A DNA stretch of 35,904 nucleotides from contig VAYJ01000004.1 in assembly GCA_005888465.1 (NCBI GenBank), positions 2,524 through 38,427 on the forward strand. The letters are read 5' to 3'. Positions 893 through 35,829 of the stretch are shown here, piece after piece. Both the position numbers and the translations under genes were made by a program. The DNA is from Actinomycetota bacterium (GTDB taxonomy: Bacteria; Actinomycetota; UBA4738). Positions within the stretch are counted from its first letter, which is position 1, and every line of letters starts with the position of its first letter. The notes beneath the pieces are model-generated. The model had not been told where the DNA came from. It saw only the letters and a program-made list of their open reading frames with translations, and searched no databases.

Positions 893-1081
893 CGATTTGC
901 TACGAGGTCTGCTACGATCCGCTCAGCGCGTGGGAGAAAAGCTCACAAGATTTCAGCGCGTTACGAATAGGCGTGAGAGGGATGGTCGAATCCCTTACCC
1001 TCCACCGCCTCGCGGGACAGAGCCTGCAGTCCTGCCGCTTCGCCTCTAGACCGTCCAGACGGACCTCATGGCGCCTTGTGC

Positions 1082-1107
1082 TGTTCGTAACCGCACGGTT
1101 GTGAACA
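1082..1107. repeat. 26-bp imperfect palindrome, copy 1 (TGTTCGTAACCG-CA-CGGTTGTGAACA)
   Basis: Read directly; arms extend to 1080-1109 (GC...GC). Near-identical copies lie at 22136 and 35593. Confidence 0.9.
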
Positions 1108-1310
1108 GCCCCGGGGGTGTCTTGAATTGCTCATCAGCAGGGACGAACGCCGAGATCAAGACCCGACCGACCGTGAGACCCATAGCGAAAAAGACGGTAC
1201 GGGTGCTGACGCGCGCCTAGCCGTGCTTCCAGGATTGGGCACATGATTCCGTGGGATAATCGCGAGAGCTTCCCGGCCAAAGTACGGACCTTCATCGAAG
1301 GAGACGGACG

Positions 1311-2495
1311 ATGATCGACATCCGCCAGTTAGACCCGATGCGACGGCCGCTCGACGAGGCCAGCCACGCGCCGGGCTGGCTCTACAGCTCGCCTGAGGTA
1401 TACCGCCTCGAGGTCGAGCAACTGTTCATGCGGAGCTGGCTCTTCGTCGGTCGCGAGGAGGAATTGCCTGGGGCCGGCGACTACCTGACGCTCCGCATCG
1501 CCGGCGAGCCGGTCGTGGTCGCCCGCACGCCGGAAGGGACCCTCAACGCCTTCTACAATATGTGCGTGCATCGCGGGGTGGAGGTGGCCCAGGGCTGCGG
1601 CAACGCCCACTCGTTCAAGTGCCCCTACCACGGCTGGATCTACGACCTCTCGGGGCGGCTCTCGGGCGCCGCCTACATGAAGGACAGCAAAGGCTTCGAG
1701 CGCGACCGCGAGCGGATGACGCCGTTGCGCCTGGACACGTGGGGCGGCTGCATCTTCGTGACCTTCGCCGCCGACGCCCCGCCGCTCGCCGAGTTCGTGG
1801 GGGGATGGGAGAAGGACTTCGCCTTCCTGCGCCCGGACAACTGCCGGCTGGGCAACCGCATCGACCTCGACCTGGCCTGCAACTGGAAGTTCGTGCCCGA
1901 GAACCTGATGGACTTCTACCATGTGGGCGTGCTGCACGCGAACACGTTCGGCGCCAAGTTCCGATGGGAGGACGAGCAGGTGCACCTGAAGCCCGGGGGC
2001 GGCATCTCGATCTTCTACAGCGCGGGACCGCCCACCCCTGGAGCCCAGCCCTTGCTCGGCAAGATGCCGTGGCTGGAAGACCGTCCCATCAGCTTCGCCT
2101 GCACGGGGTTTCTGTCGCCGAACTGCTCGCTGTTCGGCCGCATCGACTGCGTGCGGATGTTCGCGGCGTGGCCGGACGGCCCCGGCCGCTCGCGCACGAC
2201 CATCTATCACCTGTTCCCCGAGGAGTTCTTCGGCCGCCCCGGGTTCCGTGAGAAGCTCGAGGTCTACCGGGCCTACCAGCTCCAGGTGCTCGAAGAGGAT
2301 CGCTCGATGCTCGAATCGATGCAGATTGCCATGGCGTCGCCGGCCTACCGACCGGGCCGCATGTCCACGCTCGAAAAGCCTCTCCACCACTACCTGAACG
2401 GCTACGTCGACCGGCTCTTCGGAGGTAACGGTGCGGAGGTCGGCGAGCGCGAGGCACGCATGACGCGGCGGACAGCCGGCGGAGTCGCCCCATAA
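1311..2495 (+). CDS. Rieske non-heme iron oxygenase alpha subunit (choline monooxygenase / ring-hydroxylating family)
   Basis: Rieske ligands CVH...CPYH; mononuclear Fe motif NWK..ENLMDFYHVGVLH with a distal Asp in EED; GAAGGAG RBS just upstream. Confidence 0.93.
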   Translation: MIDIRQLDPMRRPLDEASHAPGWLYSSPEVYRLEVEQLFMRSWLFVGREEELPGAGDYLTLRIAGEPVVVARTPEGTLNAFYNMCVHRGVEVAQGCGNAHSFKCPYHGWIYDLSGRLSGAAYMKDSKGFERDRERMTPLRLDTWGGCIFVTFAADAPPLAEFVGGWEKDFAFLRPDNCRLGNRIDLDLACNWKFVPENLMDFYHVGVLHANTFGAKFRWEDEQVHLKPGGGISIFYSAGPPTPGAQPLLGKMPWLEDRPISFACTGFLSPNCSLFGRIDCVRMFAAWPDGPGRSRTTIYHLFPEEFFGRPGFREKLEVYRAYQLQVLEEDRSMLESMQIAMASPAYRPGRMSTLEKPLHHYLNGYVDRLFGGNGAEVGEREARMTRRTAGGVAP

Positions 2496-2548
2496 GTGCC
2501 CGTGGCGTCATCCCGCCCGCCGAACTCGCGGCCGCAGCCGACGTCCTT

Positions 2549-3547
2549 GTGCGCGACTACATGGCTGTCCGGCCGGGCGAGGACGTGCTGATCACCGCCG
2601 ATACCGCCACCGATCACGCTCTCATCCAGGTACTGACGACGGCCGTCGCCCAGGCGGACGCGCGGGGCTCTGTGCTGACGATTCCGCGCCTGCCATTCCA
2701 AGGCAAGCTCGCCGACCCCTACGTGCCGCAGGTGATTGATGGTGCGGCCCGAGGCTGCACGGTGTGGATCGATCTCACGTTCCCGTACCTGGCCGGCGCC
2801 CGCGTGTGCGACGAGGCCGTGCACGATGGCGGCGTGCGGTACCTACTCGGCGGCGACATGGGGGCGGCCGGCCTCGCCCGTCTCTTCGGCGGCGTCGACC
2901 TCGACGTCTATTATGCTGTCCACAAGGCCTTCGACGAAGCGACAGCGGCCGCCGTCGATCGCCCGGTGCGCATCACAGACGGCCTCGGCAGTGACGTCAC
3001 GTTTACCCTGGCCAAGCCCGCCTTTACCAAGCCGCGGCGGGCCCACCAGCCCGGCCTCTACTTCGTGCCGGGCTCGTGCACGATGTTCCCGAGTCCCGAG
3101 TCGGTCCAAGGCGTGTTGCACGTGGTGGCCAGCTTTCACGAATACTACGCGCGTTTCTCGGAGCCCGCCCGGCTCGTGATCGACGGGCGCATCCGGGAGG
3201 TCAGCGGGGGAGGCGCCGCGCGCGGTGCCTTGCAGCGCGCGCTACGGCGGGCGGCCGGCGGTGACTACGGCCACGTTATCCACTTCACCCACGGTATCCA
3301 TCCCGCGGCGCGGGTGACGGGTGAGTCGTTCATCGAAGACATGCGGGCGACGGGCAACGACGCCGTCGGGCTCGGCGTCCCGTTCTGGCTACCTGGCGGC
3401 GGCGAGAACCATCCCGACGCCATCCTCAGCCAGCAGTCGCTCTGGATCGACGGCCGCCCGGTGGTGCAGGATGGGGTCATCATCGCGCCTGCGCCACTCG
3501 CGACGCTCGCCGCCACGCTCGTGCCAAAGATCGGAGCCGGCCGATGA
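2549..3547 (+). CDS. Divergent M29 metallopeptidase-fold / NicX-like protein
   Basis: N-terminal VRPGEDVLITAD; C-terminal HFTHG...ENHPD..LWIDG..VVQDG matches the M29/NicX pattern of His plus His-x-Asp. Coding-like sequence continues upstream of 2549, so the start is uncertain. Confidence 0.7.
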   Translation: MRDYMAVRPGEDVLITADTATDHALIQVLTTAVAQADARGSVLTIPRLPFQGKLADPYVPQVIDGAARGCTVWIDLTFPYLAGARVCDEAVHDGGVRYLLGGDMGAAGLARLFGGVDLDVYYAVHKAFDEATAAAVDRPVRITDGLGSDVTFTLAKPAFTKPRRAHQPGLYFVPGSCTMFPSPESVQGVLHVVASFHEYYARFSEPARLVIDGRIREVSGGGAARGALQRALRRAAGGDYGHVIHFTHGIHPAARVTGESFIEDMRATGNDAVGLGVPFWLPGGGENHPDAILSQQSLWIDGRPVVQDGVIIAPAPLATLAATLVPKIGAGR

Positions 3548-4317
3548 TCGAGGTCCAGGGCGTCCACAAGATGTTCGACCTTGCCGACGGGGGCACCTAC
3601 GCGCTACGCGACGTGAGCTTCGACGTCCACGAGGGCGAGTTGGTCTCGCTCATCGGGCCCAGTGGCTGCGGCAAGACCACGCTGCTCTACTGCATCAGCG
3701 GACTCGAGCCCCTCGTGGAGGGCCGCATTCTTCTCGACGGTCGACCAGTGGAGGGCCCGCGCAGCGGCGAGGTGGGTTTGATCTTCCAGAAGGCGGTGCT
3801 ACTCGGCTGGCGCACGGTGATGGACAACGTGCTGTTGCCCATCGAGGTCTTCGGCCGGTCGCGGGCGAGCTACGCGAGCCGCGCCATGGAGCTGATCGAC
3901 TTTGTCGGCCTCACCGGCTTCGCTGACTACCTTCCCGGCAAGCTGTCGGGCGGCATGCAACAGCGCGCGGCCATCGTGCGATCGCTGATCTTCGAGCCCC
4001 GCGTGCTCCTGATGGACGAGCCATTTGGCGCTCTCGACGCGCAGACGCGTGAGCACATGAACATGTTGCTGCTACGCGTGTGGGAAGCAACGCGCAAGAC
4101 CATCGTCTTCGTCACCCACGACCTCGAGGAGGCCGCCTTCCTTTCCGACCGTGTCGTGGTGCTGACAGCGCGGCCGGGCACCGTGCGCGAGATCGTGGAC
4201 GTGCCGCTGCCGCGGCCCCGCACTATACAGATGCGCTACTCGGAGGACTTCGTCCGGCTCGCCCGCCGGCTGCGCGGACTACTGGACGTGGTTCTGTCGC
4301 CGGCCGCCATCGGGTAG
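3544..4317 (+). CDS. ABC transporter ATP-binding protein, TauB/SsuB/NrtD type
   Basis: Walker A GPSGCGKT, signature LSGGMQQR, Walker B LLMDEPFGALD, H-loop VTHD; ATGA overlap with the upstream gene. Confidence 0.95.
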   Translation: MIEVQGVHKMFDLADGGTYALRDVSFDVHEGELVSLIGPSGCGKTTLLYCISGLEPLVEGRILLDGRPVEGPRSGEVGLIFQKAVLLGWRTVMDNVLLPIEVFGRSRASYASRAMELIDFVGLTGFADYLPGKLSGGMQQRAAIVRSLIFEPRVLLMDEPFGALDAQTREHMNMLLLRVWEATRKTIVFVTHDLEEAAFLSDRVVVLTARPGTVREIVDVPLPRPRTIQMRYSEDFVRLARRLRGLLDVVLSPAAIG

Positions 4318-4327
4318 AGGCGCCTGC

Positions 4328-5206
4328 GTGGCCCAGCGCGCCGCTGAGATATCGCCGCTGACAGTGGGCGACGATCTCCACCTCGCCGTCGACGCCGCCC
4401 GCCGCGCCCGGCGCCGACGCCGTCGGCGCGACGCTCTCATCCTCAACGCCACCCGGACCGCTGTGCTGGTGGCAGCGCTGCTGGTGTGGCACCTGGCCTC
4501 GCTGGCCACTTCGCCGCTGATTCTGCCCGCGCCAGCCTTGGTGGCCGCCCAGCTCGTCCAAAGCTGGGGATTGATCGCGACGAACCTGTGGATCACGCTC
4601 GCCGAGATCGTACTGGGCTTCGTGGCGGGCAGCGCCATCGGCTTCGTCACCGGCACCGTCATCGCGCACTCGCGCCGGCTCGATGGGGTCCTGCGCCCAT
4701 ACATCGCGACCTCACAGGCCGTGCCCAAGGCTGCGCTGGCGCCGCTCTTCGTGCTCTGGCTCGGCTTTGGGCTCGGGCCCAAGGTCACCATCGCTGCCCT
4801 CATCTCGTTCTTCCCACTGCTGGAGAACACGATCGTGGGCCTGCGCCGCGTCGATCCCGACGCGCTCAAGCTGTTTGCGTCGCTCGGCGCCAGCCCCTGG
4901 CAGGTATTCGTCAAGCTGCGCCTGCCCCACGGACTGCCCTACATCCTGACGGGGCTCAAGGTGGGCGTCGTGTTCGCCACCGTGGGCGCCGTTATCGCGG
5001 AATTCGTGACCGCCAACAAGGGCCTGGGGGCTGTGATCATGCAGGCCCAGGGCAACTTCGACACCCGGCTGATGTTCGCCGTCATCATCGTGCTAACCGT
5101 GATGGGGGTGCTCCTTTACGAGGTGGTGCAGCAGGTGGAGCGGAGGGTGCTGCGCGCCTGGAACCTCGGCGAGGGGGAGCTCGATAACCGCCACACCGGG
5201 ACGTGA
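4328..5206 (+). CDS. ABC transporter permease, TauC/SsuC type
   Basis: Multiple TM helices, VPKAALAPLFVLWLG, EAA-like loop SLGASPWQVFVKLRLP, AEF...GLG. Confidence 0.93.
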   Translation: MAQRAAEISPLTVGDDLHLAVDAARRARRRRRRRDALILNATRTAVLVAALLVWHLASLATSPLILPAPALVAAQLVQSWGLIATNLWITLAEIVLGFVAGSAIGFVTGTVIAHSRRLDGVLRPYIATSQAVPKAALAPLFVLWLGFGLGPKVTIAALISFFPLLENTIVGLRRVDPDALKLFASLGASPWQVFVKLRLPHGLPYILTGLKVGVVFATVGAVIAEFVTANKGLGAVIMQAQGNFDTRLMFAVIIVLTVMGVLLYEVVQQVERRVLRAWNLGEGELDNRHTGT

Positions 5207-5255
5207 TGGACAATCGCCCGCCGACATCGTGATCGGCGAAAAGGGAGCCTAACCG

Positions 5256-6278
5256 ATGAGACGCCGCCTGCTGCTCGCCACCGTCGTGCTGTCGCTCGGC
5301 GCGCTCCTGGTGCCCGCCGTCGCCCCGCGGGCGCAGGTCCGGCCCAAGGTCCGCTACGTGCGACCGTTCCCGCCTGACGTCAGCATCGCGTGGTACTACG
5401 TGGCTCTCGACAAGGGCTACTTCCGCGACGCTGGCATCGAGACCGACATCGTGGTGGGCACGCTCGGTTCCGGGGGCGCGCTGCAGCAGGTCATCGCTGG
5501 CGCCGGCGAGTTCGCCAGCGGGCCGCCCGACGCCATGCTGAACGCAAACGCCCAGGGGGAACCGCTCGTGGGCTTCTGGCAGTGGATCAAGGTCGGGATC
5601 TTCGGCATCCAGGCCCGGAAGGATCGCGGCATCACCCGGATCGAGGACCTGAAGGGTAAGACCATCGGCGTGCTCGGGATGGCCAGCGCTACCCGCTACG
5701 CCCCCCTCATGATGCTGGCTCGCTCGGGCCTGAAGGAGGGCGACGTCAACATGGTTGTCCTCGGCGGCGGCGGTGCCGCCTACGGCCCCGCCCTCGCGCG
5801 CGGCCAGGTCGACGCGCTGGGCACCTGGGATGTACCGAAGTGGGTGGTGGAGACGACGGCAGGTGACGCGGCCTTCCGCACTCAGCTCGTCTACTTCCCG
5901 GCCTCCGACTACCTACCCGACATCTTCACCACCACGAAGAAGTACTACGACACGAACAAGGAGAATCTCGTGAAGTTCCTGGTGGCCATGCAGCGGGCCA
6001 ACGTCGATGTCGTCCGCGATATCGACGCCGCTGTGAAGATCACCGGGAAGTACTTGCCCACCGTGGCCAGTGCCGACCAGGCCGTCATGCGAAAGACCGT
6101 CGAGATCCGGGCGAGCTCACTGTCGCCGGACGGCCGCTTCGACTACGCAGCTTACGAGCGGGCCCTCCCGCTCTACAAGGAGGTCGGGCTCGTGAAGGCC
6201 GACCCGCAGGCCTTCAAGCTGCGCGAAATCCTTAGCAATGAGCTGGCGGAGTTGGTACAGAAGCAGCTCGCTCGCTGA
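5256..6278 (+). CDS. ABC substrate-binding protein, NMT1/THI5/SsuA family
   Basis: Sec-type signal peptide (MRRRLLLATVVLSLGALL...PRA); YVALDKGYF..AGIE and EDLKGKTIGV motifs. Confidence 0.92.
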   Translation: MRRRLLLATVVLSLGALLVPAVAPRAQVRPKVRYVRPFPPDVSIAWYYVALDKGYFRDAGIETDIVVGTLGSGGALQQVIAGAGEFASGPPDAMLNANAQGEPLVGFWQWIKVGIFGIQARKDRGITRIEDLKGKTIGVLGMASATRYAPLMMLARSGLKEGDVNMVVLGGGGAAYGPALARGQVDALGTWDVPKWVVETTAGDAAFRTQLVYFPASDYLPDIFTTTKKYYDTNKENLVKFLVAMQRANVDVVRDIDAAVKITGKYLPTVASADQAVMRKTVEIRASSLSPDGRFDYAAYERALPLYKEVGLVKADPQAFKLREILSNELAELVQKQLAR

Positions 6279-8583
6279 CGCTGGCCCGCAGGGGGCAGAA
6301 GCGGTGGAGGTTCACGGGCAGGCTCGTGATCTCGACCTCGGGGCCCAGGGCGTGAGCAACCGCGTTAGCCAGCGCAGCACCGGCGCCCGATGTGCCCGTC
6401 TCGCCCACGCCTTTGACGCCAAGCGGGTTGGAGGTGACGCCGCCTTCCTCCAGGATGAGGACGTCGATCGACGGCACGCTGTCGGCGCGCGGTAGTGCGT
6501 AGTCCATGAGCGTGCCGGTCAGCAGCTGGCCGTCGGCGTCGTAGACCAGCTCCTGGAGCAGCGCCCCGCCCAGCCCGTGCACAACGCCGCCCACGAGCTG
6601 CCCCTCCACGAGCAGGGGATTGATGGCGCGGCCCACGTCGCACACGAGCACGTAGCGTAGGGGCGTCACCATCCCCGTCTGGGTGTCGACGGCCACCAGG
6701 GCGATGTGCACGGAGAACGAGAAGGTCATCTCGCTGGTGCGGTGGTACTCGAAGGCGTCGAGCGGCGCCACCAGGTCCGGTGCGATTGGCACAGCTGGCG
6801 GGGCCACCATTGCTGCCACGTCGCGCAGCGTGCAGCCATGGGCGGGTGAGCCGGTCACGGAGATATGCCCGTCCTTGACGACTAGGTCAGCCGGGCTCGC
6901 CTCCAGATGCGCGGCCGCCGCGCGCAGGATCTTGTCCTTCACGCGCTGCGCGGCTCGGTAGACGGCGCTGCCCGCCATGACCGTGGTGCGCGACGCGTAG
7001 GTGCCCTCGCCGTACGGCATGAGGCCGGTATCGCCGAGGTGGACCACCACGTCGCAGTGAGGGACGTCAAGAACGTCGGCGCAGATCTGGGCGAGTGTGG
7101 TGGCCTGCCCCTGCCCCTGGGAGCCGGCGCCCGTGTAGATGTGGACTTTGCCGGAGAGGCCAAGCTCGACGCGCGCGGTCTCGAACGGGCCGCGCCCGCT
7201 CGGCTCCGCGAAACACGTGAGTCCGACACCAAGCCGGATGGTACTGCCGCCGGCGTTGGCCTCGCGGCAGCGCACGAGCAGGCCTGCGTAGTCGGCGTGC
7301 GCGAGCGCTCGCTCGAAGATGTCGGGGAAGTCGCCGCTATCGAAGACGACGGGCACGCTCGCGCTGGCGGCGCCAACGCGATAGGGCATCTGCTCGCGCC
7401 GAACGAGATTCCGCCGGCGCATCTCGGCTGGGTCCAGCCCGAGCTCGGCGGCAAGCAGGTCGAACGCGCGCTCGCGCACGAAGCCAACCTCGAAGAGGCC
7501 AGGACCCCGTAGAGTCCCCGTGGGTGTCTTGTTCGTCATCACGCACGATACCCGACAGCGGTAGTGCGCGACGTGGTATGGGCCGGGCACGTGCGCGGCC
7601 GACGAGCTCGGCACCATGGTGCCGTGGGTGCGGATGTAGGCGCCCATGTCGTTGACGAAGGCGGCATCGATGGCGAGCAGGCGGCCGTCGCCGTCCGTGG
7701 CCAGGGTCAGGTCCCAATGCTGTTCGCGGGAGTGGTTGGTGGTCAGGAGGTGCTCGCGGCGGTCCTCGATCCAGCGCACCGGCCGGCCGAGCCGGCGCGC
7801 CAGGTAGGGAACGAGGAAGTCCTCGGGATAGAACTCGCCGCGGGCGCCGAAGCCGCCGCCCACGTCGCCCTCGATGAAGCGGATCTGGTCCTCGCCGATG
7901 TCCAGCAGGTCGGCCAGCACGCGCCGGTTGAAGTACGGAACCTTGGTCACACCCCACATCGTCATAGTCTCGCGACCGGCGTCCCACTCGGCAAGGAGAC
8001 CCCGGGTCTCCATGGGCAGCGCGGTGTCGCGGCCCACCGTGAACGTGCGGCGGAACACGCGCGGGGCGGCCCGGACGATGGTGTCGACGTCACCGAAGTT
8101 GACGACCCACGTGGAGGCCAGGTTGCCGTCGGCGTGAAGCGTTGGCGATCCCGGACGCATGGCCCCGAGCGCGTCGACCACAGCCGGCAGGGGTGCGTAG
8201 TCGACCTTGATAAGATCGCGTGCGTCCTCGGCCACGTACGCGTCGGTGGCGACGACTACGGCCACCGGTTCGCCGACGTAGCGCACGGTGTCGAAGGCGA
8301 GCGGTGTCTGCAGGTAACGATCCAACTCGGGGCGCCCGGCCATGCGTATCGGGATCACGCCTAGACGCGGGATGACGTCGTCGAAAGTGAGACAGTTGAG
8401 CACGCCGGGAACCGCGCGCGCTGCCCGCGTATCGATGCGCGCGATGCGGGCATGGGCGTGGGGGCTACGCACGACCACTGCGCTCACCATGCCGGGACGC
8501 CGGAGATCAGCCACGAACCGCCCGCCACCGGTGAGGAGTTGACGGTCCTCTACGCGCTTGATGCTCGCTCCGATCAGCTTCAC
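6232..8583 (-). CDS. Xanthine dehydrogenase family molybdopterin-binding large subunit (CoxL/CutL-like; no CO-dehydrogenase motif)
   Basis: Start re-called at GTG 8583 (GGAGGGGG RBS; KLIGASIKRVED). Motifs RSPHAHA, GGGFG, LRGPG, SQGQG, ASRT, DYALP and KGVGE. The 3' end overlaps the convergent SBP gene by 47 bp. Confidence 0.93.
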   Translation of the reverse strand: MKLIGASIKRVEDRQLLTGGGRFVADLRRPGMVSAVVVRSPHAHARIARIDTRAARAVPGVLNCLTFDDVIPRLGVIPIRMAGRPELDRYLQTPLAFDTVRYVGEPVAVVVATDAYVAEDARDLIKVDYAPLPAVVDALGAMRPGSPTLHADGNLASTWVVNFGDVDTIVRAAPRVFRRTFTVGRDTALPMETRGLLAEWDAGRETMTMWGVTKVPYFNRRVLADLLDIGEDQIRFIEGDVGGGFGARGEFYPEDFLVPYLARRLGRPVRWIEDRREHLLTTNHSREQHWDLTLATDGDGRLLAIDAAFVNDMGAYIRTHGTMVPSSSAAHVPGPYHVAHYRCRVSCVMTNKTPTGTLRGPGLFEVGFVRERAFDLLAAELGLDPAEMRRRNLVRREQMPYRVGAASASVPVVFDSGDFPDIFERALAHADYAGLLVRCREANAGGSTIRLGVGLTCFAEPSGRGPFETARVELGLSGKVHIYTGAGSQGQGQATTLAQICADVLDVPHCDVVVHLGDTGLMPYGEGTYASRTTVMAGSAVYRAAQRVKDKILRAAAAHLEASPADLVVKDGHISVTGSPAHGCTLRDVAAMVAPPAVPIAPDLVAPLDAFEYHRTSEMTFSFSVHIALVAVDTQTGMVTPLRYVLVCDVGRAINPLLVEGQLVGGVVHGLGGALLQELVYDADGQLLTGTLMDYALPRADSVPSIDVLILEEGGVTSNPLGVKGVGETGTSGAGAALANAVAHALGPEVEITSLPVNLHRFCPLRASVSERAASVPTPPAHC

Positions 8584-8622
8584 TCGACGCCCCCCTCCCG
8601 GCGCGACCGTCGGGCCCTCGCG

Positions 8623-8632
8623 AGTATATACT
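8623..8632. promoter_or_regulatory. Palindrome AGTATATACT in a divergent intergenic region (TATACT -10 on both strands, or an operator)
   Basis: Perfect 10-bp AT-rich palindrome in the 91-bp gap between divergent starts at 8583 and 8675. Confidence 0.45.
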
Positions 8633-8674
8633 GGGCGGGTTCGAAACCGCCTGGAGACACAGTGAAGGAGACGG

Positions 8675-9580: not shown

Positions 9581-9597
9581 CAGAAGGGGAAAAGGCA

Positions 9598-10647: not shown

Positions 10648-10676
10648 TCCGGCTTCACCCGGCCGTGACCGCTCTT

Positions 10677-11210: not shown

Positions 11211-11250
11211 AACGGTCATCCGCGGACTGCAGTGCCGGCGCCGTGCGACG

Positions 11251-12731: not shown

Positions 12732-12733
12732 GC

Positions 12734-14571: not shown

Positions 14572-14574
14572 TGG

Positions 14575-22362: not shown

Positions 22363-22368
22363 CTCTTT

Positions 22369-26865: not shown

Positions 26866-26968
26866 GCGCGCATGGCCGGCGAAGCCTCCGTCGAGCTGCG
26901 GAGCCTCCGGAAGGGGTACGTTACCCTGCTGCCATCCGCGTTCCCATGAGCTGAGAGGAAAGGCCGTC

Positions 26969-28003: not shown

Positions 28004-28230
28004 GCGTGACGGTGCACATGCACGGCAACCTCCGGCGGTTCCTGCCCGAGGGCCGGGACCGCACAGCGATGGAGGTGGCGCCGGCGACCACCATCGAGGC
28101 GCTCCTCACCGCGCTCGGGGCCGAGCGCGACACGTGGCTGGTCGCCGTGAACGGCGCCACCTGCGAGAAGGACCGTGTCCTGCAGGAAGGCGACCTGCTG
28201 GACTGTTTCGAACCCGTCGCCGGCGGATGA
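28000..28230 (+). CDS. MoaD/ThiS-family ubiquitin-like sulfur carrier
   Basis: 76 aa with VAVNG, LQEGD and a C-terminal PVAGG diglycine; ATGA overlap with the LLM gene. Confidence 0.88.
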   Translation: MSVTVHMHGNLRRFLPEGRDRTAMEVAPATTIEALLTALGAERDTWLVAVNGATCEKDRVLQEGDLLDCFEPVAGG

Positions 28231-28241
28231 GGGAGCGTGCG

Positions 28242-28565
28242 ATGAAAGTGCGGTATGTGATCACGACGCTGAAGAAGGGGGTTGACCCCGCCGCCTATGA
28301 GAAGTGGCTGCGCGAGTACGACTACAAGGTGGCGAAGACGCTGCCCAGCATCGTCAGCTACACGACGCACCGGATCGAGGGACCCATCAACGGGGCCGAG
28401 GACGCGGGCTGGCACTACATCGAGCGGATCGAGATTCGCGACGCCGAGCAGTACCAGAAGGACCTCGCCTCGCCGGCGGGGCAGGAGCTGATCCGCCAGC
28501 TCTACGAGAACTACCTAGAGCGGCCGAAGAATATCTTCTTCTGGACGGAGCCGATCGATGAGTAA
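28242..28565 (+). CDS. HapK/RedY-like (EthD-type dimeric alpha-beta barrel) protein
   Basis: LKKGVDPAAYEKWLREYDY...LPSIVSY..HRI...HYIERIEI pattern; GGGAG RBS before ATG 28242; strongly GC3-biased codons. Confidence 0.7.
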   Translation: MKVRYVITTLKKGVDPAAYEKWLREYDYKVAKTLPSIVSYTTHRIEGPINGAEDAGWHYIERIEIRDAEQYQKDLASPAGQELIRQLYENYLERPKNIFFWTEPIDE

Positions 28566-28590
28566 TCCCGAGGCACGGAGGAGGCCCAGC

Positions 28591-30213
28591 ATGAGCAGGC
28601 GGATGGATCGCCGGTCGTTCCTGAAGGTCACCGCGGGGGCGGCCGCGCTCGGCGGCGCCGCGTTCCCCCCGCGCCGGTCGGAGGCCCAGGACAAGCGCAC
28701 CCTCGTCGTCGCGTGGGATACCGACATCGACACCCTCGACCCCGCCCACTTCAAGGCCATCGGCGGCTACGTCACCGTCGCCAACTGCTACGACACGCTC
28801 ATCGGCTGGAAGGTCCGGCCCATCAAGGACAAGCCGGGGTTCTTCCGCTCCCAGCCCGCCGAGTGGGAGCCGATGATCGCCGAGTCCTGGTCGACGGAGC
28901 GGGACGGGGCCACCCTCGTCTTCAAGATCCGCAAGGGCGCGAAGTTCCCCAGCGGGCGGCCCGTCACCGCCCACGCCGCCAAGTACTGCTTCGATCGGGG
29001 CCTCCAGTCGCCCGGCTACATGCGCCTCGTCATCCCGAGCTTGATCCAGGTGGGCTCGCCCGACCAGTTCGAGGTGCGCGACGACTACACCTTCGCCATC
29101 AAGATGAACGCGCCGAGCCCGATGGCCCTGGACGTCGTCACCCTCTCGAACAACGCCATCATGGACCCCGAGGAGGTCAAGGCGCACGCCACCAAGGACG
29201 ACCCATGGGCAGGAGAGTGGATGAAGCGCAACGTGGCCGGCGTCGGCCCCTACCGCCTCGCCAAGAACGAGCCCGGCGTGGAGGTCGTGCTGGAGTCGAG
29301 CAAGGGATACTGGCGGCCGGAGCCGTACTTCCAGCGGATCGCCCTCAAGTTCGTGCCCAACGAGGTCGACCGGGTGCTCCTCCTCAAGAAGAAGGCGATC
29401 GACATGGTCGTGGGCCGCCCGGGGCTCTCGCCCAAGAACGTGAAGAGCCTGGAGGCCGAGCCCGGGCTCAAGGTCTTCCAGGTCCCCGACACCACCTGCC
29501 ACTGGCTCTGCATGAACGGCAGCAAGCCGCCCTTCGACAACGTGAAGGTGCGGCAGGCCGTGAACTACGCCATCCCCATCCAGGCCATCCTGCCCAACGT
29601 GCTCTACGGGTACGGGACGCAGATGAAGAGCCCGCTCCCGCACCTCACCCCGGGGTACAGCGGGACGCTCTCGCCGTACAAGTACGACATCGAGAAGGCG
29701 AAGCAGCTCATGAAAGAGGCGGGCGTGACGGGGCCGATCGCCGTCGACCTTGCCATCCGCGTGGGTTTCACCACCCACGAGGCGGCCTCGGTCTGGATCC
29801 AGCGCGAGCTGGAGAAGATCGGCTTCAAGGTCAACATCGTGCGCGAGACGGACGCCACCTTCCGCCAGGTGGCCATCAAGGGCGGCCACACGCTCTCGAT
29901 GGAGTCGTTCCAGTCCTGGGTGAACGACCCCTGGTACCACCTCGTGTTCAACTTCCACACCAAGTCGAAATTCACCAACGCCTCGCTCTACTCGAACCCG
30001 GTGCTCGACAAGCTGATCGACGAGAGCATGCACGAGACCAACCAGGAGAAACGCCTCGGCTCCGCCCTCGTCGCCCAGAAGATCCTCATCGACGACGCGG
30101 TGTGGGGCTTCCTCTGGTACGACAGCTGGACGCGGGTCATGAAGGCGGACTTGAGCGGCATCGAGAAGCGCTGGGACACCTTCGAGCGGTACTACGCGGC
30201 GAAGCGCACCTAG
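28591..30213 (+). CDS. ABC substrate-binding protein, family 5 (DppA/OppA-like), Tat-exported
   Basis: Twin-arginine DRRSFLK; TLDP, YDTL, GAKFPSG.PVTA, GVGPYRL, PFDNVKVRQAVNYAI. GGAGGAGG RBS before 28591 (alternative start 28558). Confidence 0.93.
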   Translation: MSRRMDRRSFLKVTAGAAALGGAAFPPRRSEAQDKRTLVVAWDTDIDTLDPAHFKAIGGYVTVANCYDTLIGWKVRPIKDKPGFFRSQPAEWEPMIAESWSTERDGATLVFKIRKGAKFPSGRPVTAHAAKYCFDRGLQSPGYMRLVIPSLIQVGSPDQFEVRDDYTFAIKMNAPSPMALDVVTLSNNAIMDPEEVKAHATKDDPWAGEWMKRNVAGVGPYRLAKNEPGVEVVLESSKGYWRPEPYFQRIALKFVPNEVDRVLLLKKKAIDMVVGRPGLSPKNVKSLEAEPGLKVFQVPDTTCHWLCMNGSKPPFDNVKVRQAVNYAIPIQAILPNVLYGYGTQMKSPLPHLTPGYSGTLSPYKYDIEKAKQLMKEAGVTGPIAVDLAIRVGFTTHEAASVWIQRELEKIGFKVNIVRETDATFRQVAIKGGHTLSMESFQSWVNDPWYHLVFNFHTKSKFTNASLYSNPVLDKLIDESMHETNQEKRLGSALVAQKILIDDAVWGFLWYDSWTRVMKADLSGIEKRWDTFERYYAAKRT

Positions 30214-30225
30214 ACGTGGGTGATT

Positions 30226-30255
30226 CCCGCCGGGTGGCCCGGGCCGCCCGGTGGG
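30226..30255 (+). other. GC-rich hairpin between the SBP gene and the first permease
   Basis: CCCGCCGGGTGGCC / GGCCGCCCGGTGGG with two G-U pairs and no U tail; likely mRNA-stabilising. Confidence 0.55.
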
Positions 30256-30264
30256 GCCTCGTAC

Positions 30265-31281
30265 ATGGGATTCGGCCGGTACGTCCTCCAGCGCCTGCTC
30301 CTCGTCATCCCGACGCTCTTCGGGGTGACGCTCATCGCGTTCACGCTGACCTATCTGTTGCCGGGCAACCCCGCCCTCGTCAAGGCAGGAGCGCTCGCCA
30401 CCCCCGAGCACGTGGCGGAGATCGAGCGCCGGATGGGGCTTGACCGACCCGTGCCAGTCCAGTACTGGCGCTATGTGACCGGCCTCCTCCGCGGCGACCT
30501 CGGCGAGAGCTCCTCGACCGGCCGCCCCGTGCTCGAGGACTTCCGGCAGCGCATCCCGGCCACCCTGGAGCTGACGCTGGCCAGCCTCATCGTCGCCGTG
30601 GCCATCGGCATCCCGTTCGGCGTACTGTCCGCCGTCCACCGCGACACCGTGCTCGACCACCTGAGCCGCCTCCTTGGCGTGGGAGGGGTGGCCATGCCGA
30701 GCTTCTGGACGGGCTTGCTCCTCCTCTACGTCTTCTTCTACCTGCTCGGGGTGGCACCGGCGCCCCTCGGCCGCATCGCCGCCGACGTCACGCCGCCCAC
30801 GCGGATCCTCGGTCTCTATGTGGTCGACGCGCTCCTCACCGCAAACGGGACGGCCCTCGTCTCGAGCCTCCACCACCTCATGCTGCCCGCCCTCACCCTC
30901 GGCTTCGCCGTCATGGCGCCCCTCACGCGCATGGTGCGGGCGACCATGCTGGAGATCCTCGAGTCCGACTACGTGACGGCGGCGTGGGCGGCGGGACTGC
31001 CTCGGCGCCGGGTCATCTACGGGGACGCCCTCCGCAACGCGCTCATCCCTGTCATCACGCTCCTCGGCGTCATCTTCGGCTTCCTCATGGCCGGCAACGT
31101 GGTGGTGGAGATGGTCTTCGCGTGGCCCGGGCTCGGCCACTACGCGGTCACCTCGCTGATGACAAAGGACCCAGGGCCCATCCAGTCCTTCGTGCTCTTC
31201 GTGGCCGTGATGTACGTCTTGGTCAATCTCGGCGTGGATCTGCTCTACGGCCTCGCCGACCCACGGATCCGGCTGCGCTGA
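30265..31281 (+). CDS. dppB: Dpp/Opp-type ABC permease B
   Basis: GLDRPVPVQY, GDLG.S, PATLEL, ALRNALIP, VEMVFAWPGLG, DPRIR. Confidence 0.92.
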   Translation: MGFGRYVLQRLLLVIPTLFGVTLIAFTLTYLLPGNPALVKAGALATPEHVAEIERRMGLDRPVPVQYWRYVTGLLRGDLGESSSTGRPVLEDFRQRIPATLELTLASLIVAVAIGIPFGVLSAVHRDTVLDHLSRLLGVGGVAMPSFWTGLLLLYVFFYLLGVAPAPLGRIAADVTPPTRILGLYVVDALLTANGTALVSSLHHLMLPALTLGFAVMAPLTRMVRATMLEILESDYVTAAWAAGLPRRRVIYGDALRNALIPVITLLGVIFGFLMAGNVVVEMVFAWPGLGHYAVTSLMTKDPGPIQSFVLFVAVMYVLVNLGVDLLYGLADPRIRLR

Positions 31282-32114
31282 TGCGCTGGCGCCGCCTCAC
31301 GCGAAACCGGCTGTCCTTCGGCGCCCTCTGCGTCATCCTCGCGGTCACGCTGACGTCGCTGCTCGCGCCGTGGGTGGCGCCCTACGACCCCGACAACCCG
31401 GACGCCGAGGCCACACTGGCGAGCGTGTCGATGCGCCATCCCCTCGGCACCGACGTCTACGGCCGCGACCAGCTGTCGCGCGTCATCCACGCCGGCCGGA
31501 TCGATCTCCTGGTCGCACTATGCGCCACGGCGATCGCGCTGACCCTCGGGTCGGCGCTGGGTGCGGGGGCGGGCTACCGTGGGGGCTGGGTGGACCAGCT
31601 CGTGATGCGCAGCGTGGACGCGATCATGGCGTTCCCCGCCTTCATCCTCGCCATGGCCATCACCGCCGCGCTCGGGAACAGCATCGCCAACGTGGTGGCC
31701 GCCATCGCCATCACCCATGTGCCGATCTACACGCGGCTCATCCGCGGGGAGATGCTGAGGGTGCGGGAGACGGAGTACGCGGAGGCCGCGCGCACGGTGG
31801 GCAACCGCCCGCACCAGATCGTGCTCTACCATCTCCTGCCCAACTGCGTCCCGCCGCTCGTCGTGCAGGCGACCCTGGCCATGGGCTTTGCCATCCTCAC
31901 CGTGGCCGCGCTGTCCTTCATCGGCCTCGGCATCCACCCCCCCCAGAGCGAGTGGGGGCAGATGACGGCGGAGGGCGCGGGCTACGTGGTCTCCGGCGAG
32001 TGGTGGCTCGTGCTCTTTCCCGGCTTCGCCATCATGCTGACCGTGCTCGCCTTCAACCTGGTGGGCGACACCCTGCGCGACCTCCTCGATCCGCGCATGC
32101 GGGGGGTGCGGTGA
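31281..32114 (+). CDS. dppC: Dpp/Opp-type ABC permease C
   Basis: HPLGTDVYGRDQLSR, EAARTVG, HLLPN, LSFIGLG..PP..EWG, LRDLLDPR. Confidence 0.92.
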   Translation: MRWRRLTRNRLSFGALCVILAVTLTSLLAPWVAPYDPDNPDAEATLASVSMRHPLGTDVYGRDQLSRVIHAGRIDLLVALCATAIALTLGSALGAGAGYRGGWVDQLVMRSVDAIMAFPAFILAMAITAALGNSIANVVAAIAITHVPIYTRLIRGEMLRVRETEYAEAARTVGNRPHQIVLYHLLPNCVPPLVVQATLAMGFAILTVAALSFIGLGIHPPQSEWGQMTAEGAGYVVSGEWWLVLFPGFAIMLTVLAFNLVGDTLRDLLDPRMRGVR

Positions 32115-33094
32115 CCGACCTGCTCGAGGTCCGCGATCTGACCGTCCACTTCGACACCGAGGCCGGGCTCGTGGAGGCCGTGGACGGCGTCACCTTCAAC
32201 GTGCGATCGGGGGAGATCCTGGGCGTGGTTGGGGAGTCCGGCTCCGGGAAGTCGGTGACAGCCCTCGCGCTCCTGCGGCTCATCCGGCCGCCGGGCCGCA
32301 TCGTACAGGGCGCCGTGCGGTTCGAGGGCACGGACCTTGTTGGGCTGTCGGAAGACGAGATGCGCGCGGTCCGTGGCACGCGGATCGCTATGGTCTTCCA
32401 AAGCCCCCGGACGGCGCTGAACCCCGTCCTCACCGTCGGCCGGCAGATCTCGCGCCTGTTCGAGCTGCACCAGGGCGCCTCGCGCGCTGAAGGGCGGACG
32501 CGCACCATCGGGATGCTGAAGCTGGTCGGGATCTCCGAGCCCGAGCGCCGCGCTCGGCAGTACGCCCATCAGCTCTCCGGTGGAATGTGTCAGCGCGTGA
32601 TGATCGCCATGGCCCTGGCCACCTCCCCGCGGCTCCTCCTCGCCGATGAGCCCACCACCGGCCTCGACGTCTCTATCGCCGCCCAGATCCTCGAACTCCT
32701 CCGCGACCTTGGCCGACGCACGGGTGCGTCGATCCTCCTCATCACCCACGATCTCGGCGTGGTGGCGGAGGTCTGCGACCGGGTGGCCGTGATGCATGCA
32801 GGCCAGATCGTGGAAGTCGGCGCCGTGAGAGCGATCTTCGCGCGCCCACTCCACCCCTACACGCAGGCGCTCGTCCGCTCGATCCCGCGGATCGACCGCG
32901 ACGTGACGATGGAGCCGATTCCCGGGATGGTGCCGTCGCTCCTCGCCCCGCCGCCCGGCTGCCGCTACGCCGACCGCTGCCCGCGCGTGCTCGACGTCTG
33001 CCGGCGTGACCGGCCGGCGCCGCGCGCGGCCGCCCCTGATCAGGAAGTCGCCTGCCACGCCGCCGAGGTCGAGGATGCCCCTGCTCGCGGTTGA
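32111..33094 (+). CDS. dppD: Dpp/Opp-type ABC ATPase D
   Basis: GESGSGKS, LSGGMCQR, LADEPTT, HPYT, C-terminal Cys cluster; GTG start at 32111. Confidence 0.93.
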   Translation: MTDLLEVRDLTVHFDTEAGLVEAVDGVTFNVRSGEILGVVGESGSGKSVTALALLRLIRPPGRIVQGAVRFEGTDLVGLSEDEMRAVRGTRIAMVFQSPRTALNPVLTVGRQISRLFELHQGASRAEGRTRTIGMLKLVGISEPERRARQYAHQLSGGMCQRVMIAMALATSPRLLLADEPTTGLDVSIAAQILELLRDLGRRTGASILLITHDLGVVAEVCDRVAVMHAGQIVEVGAVRAIFARPLHPYTQALVRSIPRIDRDVTMEPIPGMVPSLLAPPPGCRYADRCPRVLDVCRRDRPAPRAAAPDQEVACHAAEVEDAPARG

Positions 33095-34049
33095 GGGGCT
33101 GGTCAAGCACTTTCCGCTCGGGGGGCCGGGGGAGTGGCTCGACCGCGTGCGCGGCCACGCGCCCAAGGCGGTGCGTGCCGTGGACGGCGTCTCCTTCGCC
33201 GTCGAGCCGGGCGAGACGCTCGGCCTCGTCGGGGAGTCCGGCTGCGGCAAGTCCACCGTCGCCCGGTTGATCCTCCGTCTCGTCGACCCCACCGGCGGCC
33301 ACGTGCGCTTCGGCGATGTGAACCTCACCGCGCTCGCTGGCGAGCCGCTGCGCCGCCAGCGCCGAAATCTCCAGATGGTCTTCCAGGACCCGACCGCCTC
33401 GCTGAACCCGCGGCTCAGCGTCCGCCGCGCCGTGGAGGAGCCGTTGCGCCGTCACAGCACGCTGAGGGCGGCGGAGCGGCGCGAACGGGCGGCGCAGGTA
33501 CTGGCTCGCGTCGGGCTCGAGCGCGAGCTCCTCGACCGCTACCCGCACGAGCTCTCGGGGGGCCAGCGCCAGCGGGTGAATATCGCGCGCGCCATTGTCA
33601 CCGAGCCCCGTTTCGTCGTGCTGGACGAGCCGACCTCCTCGCTCGACGTGTCGCTCCGCGCGAAGGCGATCCTCCTCCTCGCCGAGCTGCGCGCCACGCT
33701 CGGCATGAGCTACCTGTTCATCTCGCACGACCTCGCCACCGTGAAGTACCTCGCCGGCCGCGTCGCCGTCATGTACCTGGGGACAATCGTGGAGGAGGCG
33801 TCCACGGCGGAGCTATTCCGGCAGCCGCGCCACCCATATACGAAAGCGCTTCTGTCGGCCGTCCCCGTCCCCGACCCCACGGTCCAGCGGGAACGCTTGG
33901 TGCTGAGGGGCGAGGTCCCAAGCCCCATCGACATCCCCGCCGGCTGCCGGCTGCGCGGGCGCTGCCCGCTCGCGCAGCCCGTCTGCGCCGAGCCCGTGAC
34001 CCTGCGCGAGGTGGCGCCGCGGCATCGCGTCGCCTGCCATCTCGCCTGA
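33075..34049 (+). CDS. dppF: Dpp/Opp-type ABC ATPase F
   Basis: GESGCGKS, QMVFQDP, LSGGQRQR, LDEPTS, HPYT, VACH. Confidence 0.93.
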   Translation: MPLLAVEGLVKHFPLGGPGEWLDRVRGHAPKAVRAVDGVSFAVEPGETLGLVGESGCGKSTVARLILRLVDPTGGHVRFGDVNLTALAGEPLRRQRRNLQMVFQDPTASLNPRLSVRRAVEEPLRRHSTLRAAERRERAAQVLARVGLERELLDRYPHELSGGQRQRVNIARAIVTEPRFVVLDEPTSSLDVSLRAKAILLLAELRATLGMSYLFISHDLATVKYLAGRVAVMYLGTIVEEASTAELFRQPRHPYTKALLSAVPVPDPTVQRERLVLRGEVPSPIDIPAGCRLRGRCPLAQPVCAEPVTLREVAPRHRVACHLA

Positions 34050-34140
34050 TCCGACAAAGGAGACCGATCGTATGGAAGAAGGGAAGAGCGATGCGGACGT
34101 CCCCCAGGCTAATCTCGCGAGGGGTGCCCGCCACGGACGC

Positions 34141-35106
34141 TCAACTCTCGCGAAGGGCCGGCCAGACCTCGCGGACGAAGAGCTCGAAGCTGCGCTGCTT
34201 GCGCTGCCCGTCCGGGCGCAGGAAGAACGTGGTGTTCAGGCCCGCGGTCTCCCGCGCGAGGGCGCGGAATCGCGCCAGCACCTCGGCGGGGGTGCCGGCG
34301 ATCCCCGCGACCTCCATCAGCGCGTCGCTCACCAGCGCGCTGTGGGCGACGTGCGACTTTAGGTGCTGCGTGTAGTCGTAGCCCCGCGCGAGCGCGTCGA
34401 CGTCAGGGCGCAGGTGCTCCAGCTCGGGCGGAAAGTGCTCGGGGTAGTACACGAAGTTGAGCAGACGCCGGGCCACGCCGCCCCGCGCGTCGTCCACCGC
34501 CTCGCCCCGATCGTGCGAGACGGCGAAGCCGACGTAGATGAGCACCGGCAGGTCGCGCAGGCTCCGGCCGGGCTCGCGCGCCGCGACCTCGACCCGATCG
34601 AGGGTGCGCCGCAGGTCCTGGGGCGTGCCGATGCAGGGCACGATGATGCCGTCGGCCGCCTCACAGGCGTAGGCGGCCAGTCGCGGCCCGTTGGCCGCCA
34701 CGTAGATCGGGATGTCGGCCTTCCGCTCGCGGAACTTCGCGCGGCAGATGTCCACCGCCTCCCGCACCTCGGCGATGCGCGCGGGCTGGCGGCCGAGCGT
34801 GCGCACCGCGTTGTCGCCGGCGCCGAGGCCCAGGATGCCGCGCCCGCCCGACAGCTCGTGGATGGTCAGCATGGCCCCGGCCGTCACGCGCGGGTGACGG
34901 GTCACGGGGTTGGTCACACCCGGACCAATGCGGACGCGGCCCGTGTTCACGGCGAGCAGGGCCGCCGTGGCCCAGGGATCGGGGAAGACGTCCTGCCCGT
35001 CGATGACCCACACGTTCTCGCACCCCGCGGCCTCGGCAAGCTGGGCCATCTCGATGTACCGGGGATGCGGGATGTCCTGCATCAGGAACAGATCGCACTT
35101 GACCAT
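34141..35106 (-). CDS. LLM-class flavin/F420-dependent oxidoreductase (Mer-like)
   Basis: AEAAGCENVW, IGPGVTNPVTRHP, ELSGGRGILGLGAGD, PIYVAANGP, ADG. Start re-called at 35106. Confidence 0.9.
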   Translation of the reverse strand: MVKCDLFLMQDIPHPRYIEMAQLAEAAGCENVWVIDGQDVFPDPWATAALLAVNTGRVRIGPGVTNPVTRHPRVTAGAMLTIHELSGGRGILGLGAGDNAVRTLGRQPARIAEVREAVDICRAKFRERKADIPIYVAANGPRLAAYACEAADGIIVPCIGTPQDLRRTLDRVEVAAREPGRSLRDLPVLIYVGFAVSHDRGEAVDDARGGVARRLLNFVYYPEHFPPELEHLRPDVDALARGYDYTQHLKSHVAHSALVSDALMEVAGIAGTPAEVLARFRALARETAGLNTTFFLRPDGQRKQRSFELFVREVWPALRES

Positions 35107-35137
35107 GCCGCTACATATAGCACGGTGCGGGCGCGCC

Positions 35138-35166
35138 TTGACACGGTCGGAGGGGCCGGGTAGCGT
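35138..35166 (+). promoter_or_regulatory. Sigma70-like promoter TTGACA-N17-TAGCGT upstream of the GntR remnant
   Basis: Perfect -35 at 35138, 17-bp spacer, TAnnnT -10 at 35161. Direct repeats GTGTACCRGA at 35178 and 35191 follow. Confidence 0.6.
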
Positions 35167-35177
35167 CAGGCCCACCT

Positions 35178-35570
35178 GTGTACCGGAACGGTGTACCAGA
35201 CACGCCGACCACCTCGGGTCAGATCTTCGCGCGGCTCATGCGCGACATCCTCTCCGGCAGCCTGCGCCCGCGCGATCAGCTCAGCGAGCGTGAGGTCGTC
35301 CAGCGCTTCGGCGTCAGCCGCACGCCTGCCCGCGAGGCGATCACGGCCTCTTCGAGAAGGGCTTCCTCGCGCGAGGGACGCGCGGAGCCGCCGTGGTGCG
35401 AGACATCGACTGCGACGAGCTCCGCGAGCTCTACGCCCTCCCATCTCCACCTCGAGGGCTGAGCGGCCGGCCTCACTGTGAAGCACATCACGCCCACGGA
35501 GATCGCCCGTCTCCAGGAGATCAGTCGGCGGTTCGAGAAGGTGGTGGGCGAGGATCAGGTATGGGCCCAC
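35178..35570 (+). pseudogene. GntR (FadR/FCD-type) regulator, frameshifted and truncated
   Basis: DILSGSLRPRDQLSEREVVQRFGVSRTPAREAI, then a frameshift to LFEKGFL...ELRELYAL, a shift back to LHLEG* AAGLTVKHITPTEIARLQEI. Similarity is lost before the palindrome at 35593. Confidence 0.88.
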
Positions 35571-35592
35571 TCCGTTCAGGACTGCTCCGATG

Positions 35593-35618
35593 TGTTCGTA
35601 ACCGGTCGGTTGCGAACA
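35593..35618. repeat. 26-bp imperfect palindrome, copy 3 (TGTTCGTAACCG-GT-CGGTTGCGAACA)
   Basis: Read directly; same orientation as copies 1 and 2. Confidence 0.9.
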
Positions 35619-35829
35619 GCTAGAGATATTCAGCTACGTGGTCTCTCCGAGAATCGGCGCTAGTAGCCAGTAGTCGGCCGGTTGAAGCGCCAATCAGACA
35701 GCCTTTCGAGATGCCACATCGAGGACGAAGAGTCCGAGACGACGGCACTGAGTTCACGCCCTAGGCCAGCCGGATCGCGAGGATTATTCACATTCTTCCT
35801 AACTCCTGAAAAGGGGGGACGTTAAAGGC

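Follow-up and report, generated by a model that had tools for sequence, protein, structure and literature searches.

The three 26-bp palindromes of a 35,904-nucleotide stretch of DNA from an Actinomycetota bacterium (lineage UBA4738; contig VAYJ01000004.1 of assembly GCA_005888465.1), the whole of which is here called the window, are probably crossover sites of a family of small serine recombinases of ~225-230 amino acids (aa), a reading held with good confidence on the strength of sequence comparison. The palindromes follow the pattern TGTTCGTAACCG-NN-CGGTTGYGAACA, in which two 12-bp arms enclose a 2-nt core (12-2-12). A sequence-only reading of the window had proposed both that they are serine-recombinase crossover sites whose enzyme is encoded elsewhere, and that they delimit two blocks of catabolic genes captured or stacked as cargo. 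The first proposal is supported by sites that lie within recombinase genes and by flanks that are reassorted at the palindrome; the second is not borne out by the data. The sites in the window are the following:

1082..1107, no strand: site 1, 26-bp palindrome with core CA, identified by pattern match
22136..22161, no strand: site 2, 26-bp palindrome with core CT, identified by pattern match
35593..35618, no strand: site 3, 26-bp palindrome with core GT, identified by pattern match

All three are exact matches to the pattern. A scan of the window at up to three mismatches finds no match beyond them, and 100 dinucleotide-preserving shuffles of the window give 0 matches (chance expectation 0). 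The left arms are identical in all three copies, the cores are unlike and the flanks are mutually unrelated, all as had been read from the letters, and the gene context of the three sites bears out the non-coding placement of each. The window corresponds to C238:2524-38427 of an assembly that is 89.7% complete with 4% contamination, ~10% of the genome being unassembled. Exactly 7 sites occur in the assembly as a whole (2.77 Mb, 296 contigs scanned), and this count is unchanged at up to six mismatches, so that the class of sites is sharply bounded. The four sites outside the window lie at C7:4541, C192:5899, C206:7610 and C261:1379, and the arms of all seven are near-perfect, with at most three mismatches over the 24 specified positions.

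The link to a recombinase comes from metagenome contigs, mostly from soil, which hold at least 120 loci of the motif. These were compared over 2 kb around each site. Their flanks fall into recurring classes, one of which is made up of the 3'-terminal coding sequence of a 225-230-aa serine recombinase. At loci L068, L078 and L056 the palindrome lies in frame 0 and encodes V-R-N-R-T/A-V-x-N a few codons before the stop, and in a tblastn search with the L068 recombinase as query (E<1e-4), 21 of 126 metagenome and genome loci show homology that stops at the palindrome. All 14 distinct recombinase-bearing copies listed are in frame 0 and read V-R/H-N-R/P-x-V-x-N. L054, L068 and L078 carry a full-length gene, as does L057, in which a frameshift interrupts it; at six further loci the recombinase homology runs to the edge of the sequence, and at the remaining ones only the last 20-110 codons are left. 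Under a simple classification, 15 of 114 distinct sites carry a recombinase 3' end, 16 carry the tail only and 83 neither. The usual tail consists of five residues, T-K-E/D-V-S-stop and variants. The tail-only class includes the C7 site and site 3, the latter by virtue of a short stretch that resembles the flank of L066:

35576..35593, minus strand: recombinase C-terminal tail remnant (T-S-E-Q-S-stop), directly after the octet encoded by the palindrome

In the distant relative L022 (30% identity) the palindrome is found 75 bp before the recombinase start and not in the 3' end. A position before the recombinase start is the classical place for such a site. The L022 palindrome lies in DNA of low guanine plus cytosine (G+C) content (L022:45-814), beside a promoter-like TTGACT..TATTTT. 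No description of an in-frame site in the 3' end of the recombinase's own gene appears in the titles and abstracts of the literature consulted, which deals with serine recombinases in general; PMC13552941 concerns defence islands and not such sites.

The palindrome appears to be conserved as DNA through compensating changes in its two arms. Among recombinase homologues the C-terminal octet varies in mirrored fashion, in forms such as V-T-N-R-x-V-S-D, V-H-N-R-x-V-V-D, V-T-N-R-x-V-G-H and V-P-N-R-x-V-G-N. In 70 of the 105 homologues with an alignable octet, the residues at positions 2 and 7 allow reverse-complement codons, as against 40.5 on average and at most 58 in 2000 shuffled pairings; relatedness among the homologues inflates this count, and several distinct pair types are present nonetheless. 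A variant palindrome is also seen directly as DNA in a recombinase remnant on C241, whose arms GTCACTAACCG and GTCACTCACCG encode V-T-N-R-T-V-S-D, and this variant matches a subfamily among the protein homologues.

The reassortment of flanks points to exchange at the central 2-nt overlap of the palindrome, with cores that match between the partners. Clustering of the outward flanks at >=80% identity over 40 nt resolves 128 sites into 93 configurations, with 18 flank classes that have at least two partners, two broad recombinase classes being set aside. Where configurations have the same flank class and another partner (44 pairs), the core is identical in 42 of the 44 (null 12.6%), 31 pairs agree in the arm on the side of that flank (null 20%) and 29 differ in the arm of the partner. 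At least six core classes exist among the sites. A full two-by-two set with hybrid arms is formed by L023 (GTTCGC..GCGAAC), L084 (GTTCGC..ATGAAC), L122 (GTTCAT..GCGAAC) and L030 (GTTCAT..ATGAAC). On the left, L023 and L084 have all of the available 953 nt in common at 97.6%, as far as palindrome +1, and nothing beyond; on the right, L023 and L097 have all 2000 nt in common at 98.1%, and nothing on the left. In the rearranged contigs (97-99% identical, 1-2 kb shared) the likeness ends within the palindrome, and the exact stretch between rearranged partners is only ~12 nt, which is probably too short for de Bruijn chimeras. The metagenome contigs thus agree with the suggestion that the motif lies at breakpoints of synteny, and the near-constant identity of the cores fits the expectation that unequal cores would block recombination. 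A search for additional half-sites within 300 nt of 121 sites (67,744 flank bases) found 0, which indicates that the sites are simple and not res-like.

The mechanism that may be proposed from these data is a simple one. A recombinase dimer would bind the two 12-bp arms of a site, two sites would pair, and all four strands would be cleaved at the central dinucleotide with an offset of 2 nt; the half-sites would then change places, and rejoining would succeed only with matching cores. In this scheme binding, cutting and rotation are taken over from known serine recombinases, and the sequence data speak for the central exchange and the matching of cores. Intact members of the family carry one site within the final codons of their own recombinase gene, in frame with it. 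The left arm is predicted, from a structural model, to encode the end of the last DNA-binding helix (V-R-N), and the right arm a disposable tail, so that an exchange would rewrite the tail only. The seven sites of the assembly would be orphan sites, among which site 3 and the C7 site keep the recombinase tail on one side. Sites 1 and 3 have same-core partners on other contigs and may mark places where chromosome neighbourhoods are, or once were, re-joined: site 1 and C261:1379 are identical 26-mers in opposite orientation, and site 3 and C206:7610 have the core GT in common, again in opposite orientation. For site 2 (CT) no same-core partner is found in the assembly. Such pairs are expected by chance, because core usage is strongly skewed. 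The three window cores all differ, and the window sites would therefore be unable to recombine with one another.

The recombinases themselves comprise a Resolvase domain (PF00239, E 1e-24 to 1e-36 in L068, L054, L078 and L022) followed by positions 1-54 of the 102 of the Recombinase domain PF07508. Residues Y6, R8 and S10, which we take to be the serine-recombinase nucleophile motif, are invariant in 40 aligned members. The best NCBIfam matches (CcrB, XisF and Mpi) all fall far below their cut-offs, the Mpi invertase scoring 38-46 bits against a cut-off of 272, and the best sequence matches among solved structures are the catalytic domain of the TP901-1 integrase and Gin. An AlphaFold model (predicted local distance difference test score of 80) contains the catalytic domain, a long helix and C-terminal helices at residues 170-184, 189-198 and 211-219, with residues 222-230 disordered. 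Its nearest folds are the Bxb1, phiC31 and SPbeta-type integrases, followed by the gamma-delta resolvase with its DNA-binding domain. There are 339 homologues at E<=1e-10, and most of the 120 listed are 226-270 aa in length; one listed homologue is named by NCBI, as coming from a metagenome-assembled genome (MAG) of Candidatus Rokuibacteriota. No recombinase relative was found in viral contigs. At E<=1e-40 the 301 genomes of the phylum give 0 recombinase matches, an empty answer that is uninformative at this search. The family was also considered as the product of a split large integrase. A search for longer forms among 8000 candidates returned a single protein, whose extension is a read-through and not integrase-like, and the candidate was set aside; the same search argues weakly that the family may be genuinely small.

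Compared with known systems, the site appears to be of the hix/gix type, and the enzyme seems closest to the N-terminal part of the large serine integrases. The hix, gix and cix sites of the Hin, Gin, Cin and Pin invertases are 26 bp long, with 12-bp inverted arms and a 2-bp core. They resemble the palindromes described here in symmetry and in the 26-bp layout, in having no res-like subsites, in being served by a small serine recombinase and in the need for matching cores. The present family differs from the Hin/Gin-type proteins (~190 aa with a C-terminal helix-turn-helix, HTH) in that it consists of PF00239 and half of PF07508 only and has no invertase-type HTH, its DNA-binding part being the first half of the Recombinase domain; here, moreover, one site lies in the recombinase open reading frame (ORF), the sites are scattered and they fall into at least six core classes. 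We know of no enhancer for this recombinase, in contrast to Hin and Gin. The large serine recombinases (Bxb1, phiC31, SPbeta-type, CcrB, XisF) provide the nearest folds and sequence families, and their att sites are likewise simple, with a central dinucleotide that sets compatibility. The attP and attB sites are asymmetric, whereas the 26-mers here are symmetric and have no visible asymmetry. The proteins are also about half the size of the large integrases (at least 400 aa, in which the Recombinase domain is complete and accompanied by a zinc ribbon and a coiled coil), ending within the Recombinase domain and having neither zinc ribbon nor coiled coil. The res sites of Tn3 and gamma-delta resolvases share the serine recombinase and a palindromic crossover subsite, but they possess accessory subsites, none of which was found at the 121 sites, and the site here is at the 3' end of the gene, with L022 as the exception.

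Two other systems offer a partial parallel. In SSV1-type archaeal integrases, which are tyrosine recombinases, attP is situated inside the integrase gene and integration splits the gene. The likeness lies in a site within the recombinase's own coding sequence; the family discussed here differs in being a serine recombinase in which only a disordered tail of ~5-30 residues would be exchanged. Integron attC arrays and pdif modules carry cargo delimited by recombination sites, and they correspond to the earlier picture of bounded gene blocks. They differ in enzyme class and site structure, and the blocks here are of 13-21 kb, with unlike bounding cores and no block movement seen. The link of the site to a serine-recombinase gene is seen in the metagenome relatives and not within this genome, where remnants occur.

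The distribution of the motif outside the assembly bears on the view that the palindrome is an operator, bound by a dimeric transcription factor such as IclR or a global regulator of N-heterocycle catabolism. The placement of site 2 between divergent genes, 178 bp before the IclR gene, and of site 1 before an operon would suit such a role, as would the two degenerate R/Y positions per arm, which look like a protein half-site. The scan that had been suggested for this genome and its relatives gives 7 sites in the assembly, at least 120 metagenome loci and none, at up to three mismatches, in 40 genomes of the same family or order. The best IclR match in those relatives has 39% identity, which makes them too distant for a synteny test across the sites, and their lack of the motif is a weak test of orthologous promoters; a set distance before orthologous genes was not found, a result equally weakened by the distance of the relatives. 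Elsewhere, however, the site forms part of the 3'-terminal coding sequence of recombinase genes, its distance to gene starts is variable, some copies come after the end of a gene or after a pseudogene, the flanks are reassorted at the site and the neighbouring gene families are unrelated across 78 loci. An operator, which the sequence-only reading had kept as an alternative, is thus very unlikely. In a wider search, 185,579 species genomes yield 6 loci with a slightly degenerate pattern, in Rokubacteria/Methylomirabilota (2), Solirubrobacterales (2) and a Desulfomonile/Syntrophaceae pair. Five motif-bearing species genomes have 1-2 sites each, with recombinase fragments or unrelated large recombinases only.

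The palindrome may alternatively be viewed as a hairpin that acts as single-stranded DNA or RNA, either a repetitive extragenic palindrome (REP)-like element spread by Y1/HUH enzymes (REP-associated tyrosine transposase, RAYT, or of the IS200/IS605 type) or a terminator. It is an imperfect palindrome, and the remark that every arm mismatch is a G-T wobble on the plus strand holds for the three window copies; it does not hold for the family. At two positions per arm the pattern admits transitions and nothing else, so that a mismatch there is G-T on one strand and A-C on the other, and among 110 distinct copies double arm mismatches are on the same strand in 11 and mixed in 15, which gives no strand bias and no footing for a strand-specific hairpin. 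Nor does the element resemble a REP/RAYT system, as it has only 7 copies in the genome and PF01797 (Y1) gives 0 matches in the assembly, with control genomes matched. No T run follows the palindrome at the window sites, as a terminator would have it. Of all the readings weighed, the hairpin is given the slightest chance.

A third alternative is that the palindrome is the target or the end of another mobile element, either of the IS110/IS1111 family or as a tyrosine-recombinase core read as 10-6-10. Insertion sequences (IS) of the IS110/IS1111 family insert into palindromic repeats, and IS110-family fragments lie ~2 kb to the left of site 1; part of a tyrosine integrase adjoins the C261 site, and L074 has an integrase gene nearby. 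Against this, no IS110 domain is found in 149 ORFs next to 78 sites, and tyrosine integrases occur at 1 of 78 loci, compared with a serine recombinase that ends in the site at 21 of 126. The variable centre is moreover 2 nt and not 6-8 nt, and homology between rearranged contigs ends within the palindrome and not beside it. This possibility is accordingly considered quite improbable. As to the fragments themselves, C238:1-1600, just left of the window, contains IS110-family transposase domain fragments (DEDD_Tnp_IS110, Transposase_20) together with a partial ATP-binding cassette (ABC) substrate-binding gene, and the first 1 kb of the window has a G+C of 0.58, compared with 0.65-0.74 elsewhere. 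The integrase fragment at C261:1352-1904 is C-terminal and extends from the palindrome to 83 bp off the 3' end of a tRNA-Asp gene, as if left behind by an element that had integrated at this tRNA. In L016, a Solirubrobacterales MAG (1-4022), a Mutator-family (IS256-type) transposase fragment ends ~40 bp before the palindrome, and group II intron reverse transcriptases are encoded on either side.

Several observations weigh against the crossover-site reading. The reassorted flanks are seen in assembled Logan contigs from different samples and not in raw reads, and the site sample is biased to the canonical form, since the search pattern was fixed to R/Y and S at six positions and the metagenome matches are those listed. 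The assembly has no intact cognate recombinase, fragments being present at C9 and C241 only. Site 1 is unchanged in L046, which is colinear across it at 98.8-99.9% identity, and site 2 keeps its configuration in L093 (97.8%) and L110 (100%) and is bridged unchanged in the three soil runs X3, X4 and X8 (records 11, 20 and 27). Genes are truncated ~20-25 nt from the palindrome (GntR at site 3, a histidine kinase on C206, the tyrosine integrase on C261), and short modules of 75-250 bp recur beside sites, which simple reciprocal exchange does not explain. The only other gene with a Resolvase domain in the assembly codes for an unrelated large serine recombinase of 648 aa, on C31. At C9:3047-3282, recombinase residues ~2-48 (minus strand) and ~47-81 (plus strand) meet head to head, an order that reflects either an internal inversion or an assembly chimera. 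The fragment at C241:1217-1387 is a decayed recombinase C-terminus with in-frame stops.

These observations lend weight to the view that the palindromes are true sites by descent and dead scars in this genome, with no part in the present arrangement of the blocks. The broken recombinase remnants in the assembly, the pseudogenes that adjoin sites, the invariance of sites 1 and 2 in all close contigs and the recombinases cut back elsewhere to their last codons beside the site all favour it. It is opposed by the near-perfect arms of all 7 sites, which neutral decay would have blurred, by the alternative junctions at site 3 in close relatives and by the unassembled part of the genome. A fossil state of this kind has a substantial chance of being correct, short of an even one.

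Among the close relatives seen, only site 3 varies. Four soil runs (X1, X3, X4 and X8) were followed as Logan contigs, in which uncovered stretches are uninformative; most joints and loose ends trace back to other organisms, whose paralogues show 90-95% likeness, and were disregarded. Site 3 is bridged unchanged in X1 (record 8). In X8, record 32 matches the window to 35618 and continues with 235 nt unlike it, and L087 and L130 have only 74 nt to the right of site 3 in common with the window, their left flank being different. L073 and L059 are counterparts of the C206 and C192 sites. Junctions that join one flank to another, which the sequence-only reading had asked for, are thus found at site 3, and its notion of synteny broken at the sites survives there; at sites 1 and 2 synteny is unbroken in all close contigs. 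No movement of the 21-kb or the 13-kb block as a unit is seen in contigs of close relatives, and the capture or stacking of these blocks as cargo finds no support, given the invariance of sites 1 and 2, the unlike cores and the lack of an intact recombinase.

The modules beside sites 2 and 3 and the interrupted gene before site 3 are as follows:

22162..22258, no strand: module of ~100 bp to the right of site 2, recurring beside the palindrome in L024 (87%) and L037 (77%)
35619..35692, no strand: module of ~75 bp to the right of site 3, common to L087 and L130 (94%), beyond which the contigs diverge
35142..35590, plus strand: GntR-family pseudogene with a frameshift behind the HTH (PF00392, E=7e-13, profile positions 2-46 of 64)

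The likeness of the GntR pseudogene stops ~20 nt before the site 3 palindrome, in agreement with the observation that a GntR gene breaks off just before it. A comparable truncation is seen at C206:7318-7609, where a GAF-type histidine-kinase gene has a premature stop where HisKA should begin and the likeness is lost ~22 nt before the palindrome. The module at C192:5743-5875, also present in L035, L058, L059, L060, L094, L104, L123 and L044, contains a nearly invariant block of ~45 nt with a T-arm/acceptor-like end and, in some copies, CCA. This block resembles the 3' half of a tRNA-Glu gene, its T arm being that of tRNA-Glu(TTC) at C201:7120-7193, and it is convergent to the recombinase gene, overlapping the last codons of the latter. 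ARAGORN calls no tRNA beside any site, Rfam gives no family at gathering or at E<=0.1 save two weak partial tmRNA matches, and RNAalifold finds no convincing structure (-9 kcal/mol) for the module with the 45-nt block. A further module of ~190-240 bp follows the recombinase tail at C7:4323-4559 and in L030, L055, L084, L086, L128 and L132. In C7 and L030 it separates the palindrome from the start of a gene for a solute-binding protein, of one family in C7 and of another in L030. To the right of the C7 site the sequence reads N.

The genes between the sites are given for context:

1311..21600, no strand: block between sites 1 and 2, with a Rieske oxygenase, an NMT1-type ABC transporter, a molybdenum hydroxylase large subunit, a branched-chain-type ABC transporter, a class-III aminotransferase and a hydantoinase/oxoprolinase
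22339..35175, no strand: block between sites 2 and 3, with IclR, a three-subunit molybdenum hydroxylase (FAD, 2Fe-2S and Mo subunits), two luciferase-like monooxygenases, a HapK-like protein and an Opp/Dpp-type ABC transporter

Site 1 is upstream of its operon, 204 bp from the start of the Rieske oxygenase. Site 2 is flanked by the divergent hydantoinase/oxoprolinase and IclR genes; the IclR gene, which starts at 22339, heads the block of molybdenum-hydroxylase, monooxygenase and peptide-type ABC transporter genes. A long open frame runs over site 2, and it is not the hydantoinase gene proper: the Hydant_A_N domain begins at about residue 221 of this frame, which places the true gene start near 21,600. 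The "IS remnant" that had been seen to the left of site 2 receives no support from Pfam in the three ORFs tried, two of which match 0 families and the third of which gives one sub-threshold GntR match (E=0.1). Window positions 21312-21975 have a summed contig depth of 57-442 in the four soil runs, compared with ~5-30 nearby, contain loose contig ends at 21499 and 21532, and include a piece of ~116 bp that recurs on C3, which points to a high-copy repeat in the interval from the hydantoinase start to site 2.

It may further be proposed, as a tentative and rather doubtful extension of the crossover-site reading, that the palindromes are nodes of a chromosome-wide shuffling network, in which same-core pairs would serve as orthogonal switches that invert or relocate multi-gene blocks, the catabolic and transport modules of the window among them, and the in-gene node would travel with the recombinase. 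If such a network is real, it would be a natural counterpart of engineered sets of sites with orthogonal cores, in which each event rewrites only the tail of the enzyme. The present analysis pairs an enzyme of ~230 aa with a symmetric 26-bp site from sequence evidence alone, namely covarying arms and breaks of synteny, and the in-frame palindrome would constrain eight codons of the recombinase. Should activity be confirmed, the compact enzyme, the short sites and the choice of partner set by the core would make the system a candidate for engineering. The dispersal of the sites and their division into at least six core classes may give uncultured soil bacteria a route by which the neighbourhoods of a chromosome, catabolic gene blocks included, are re-joined.

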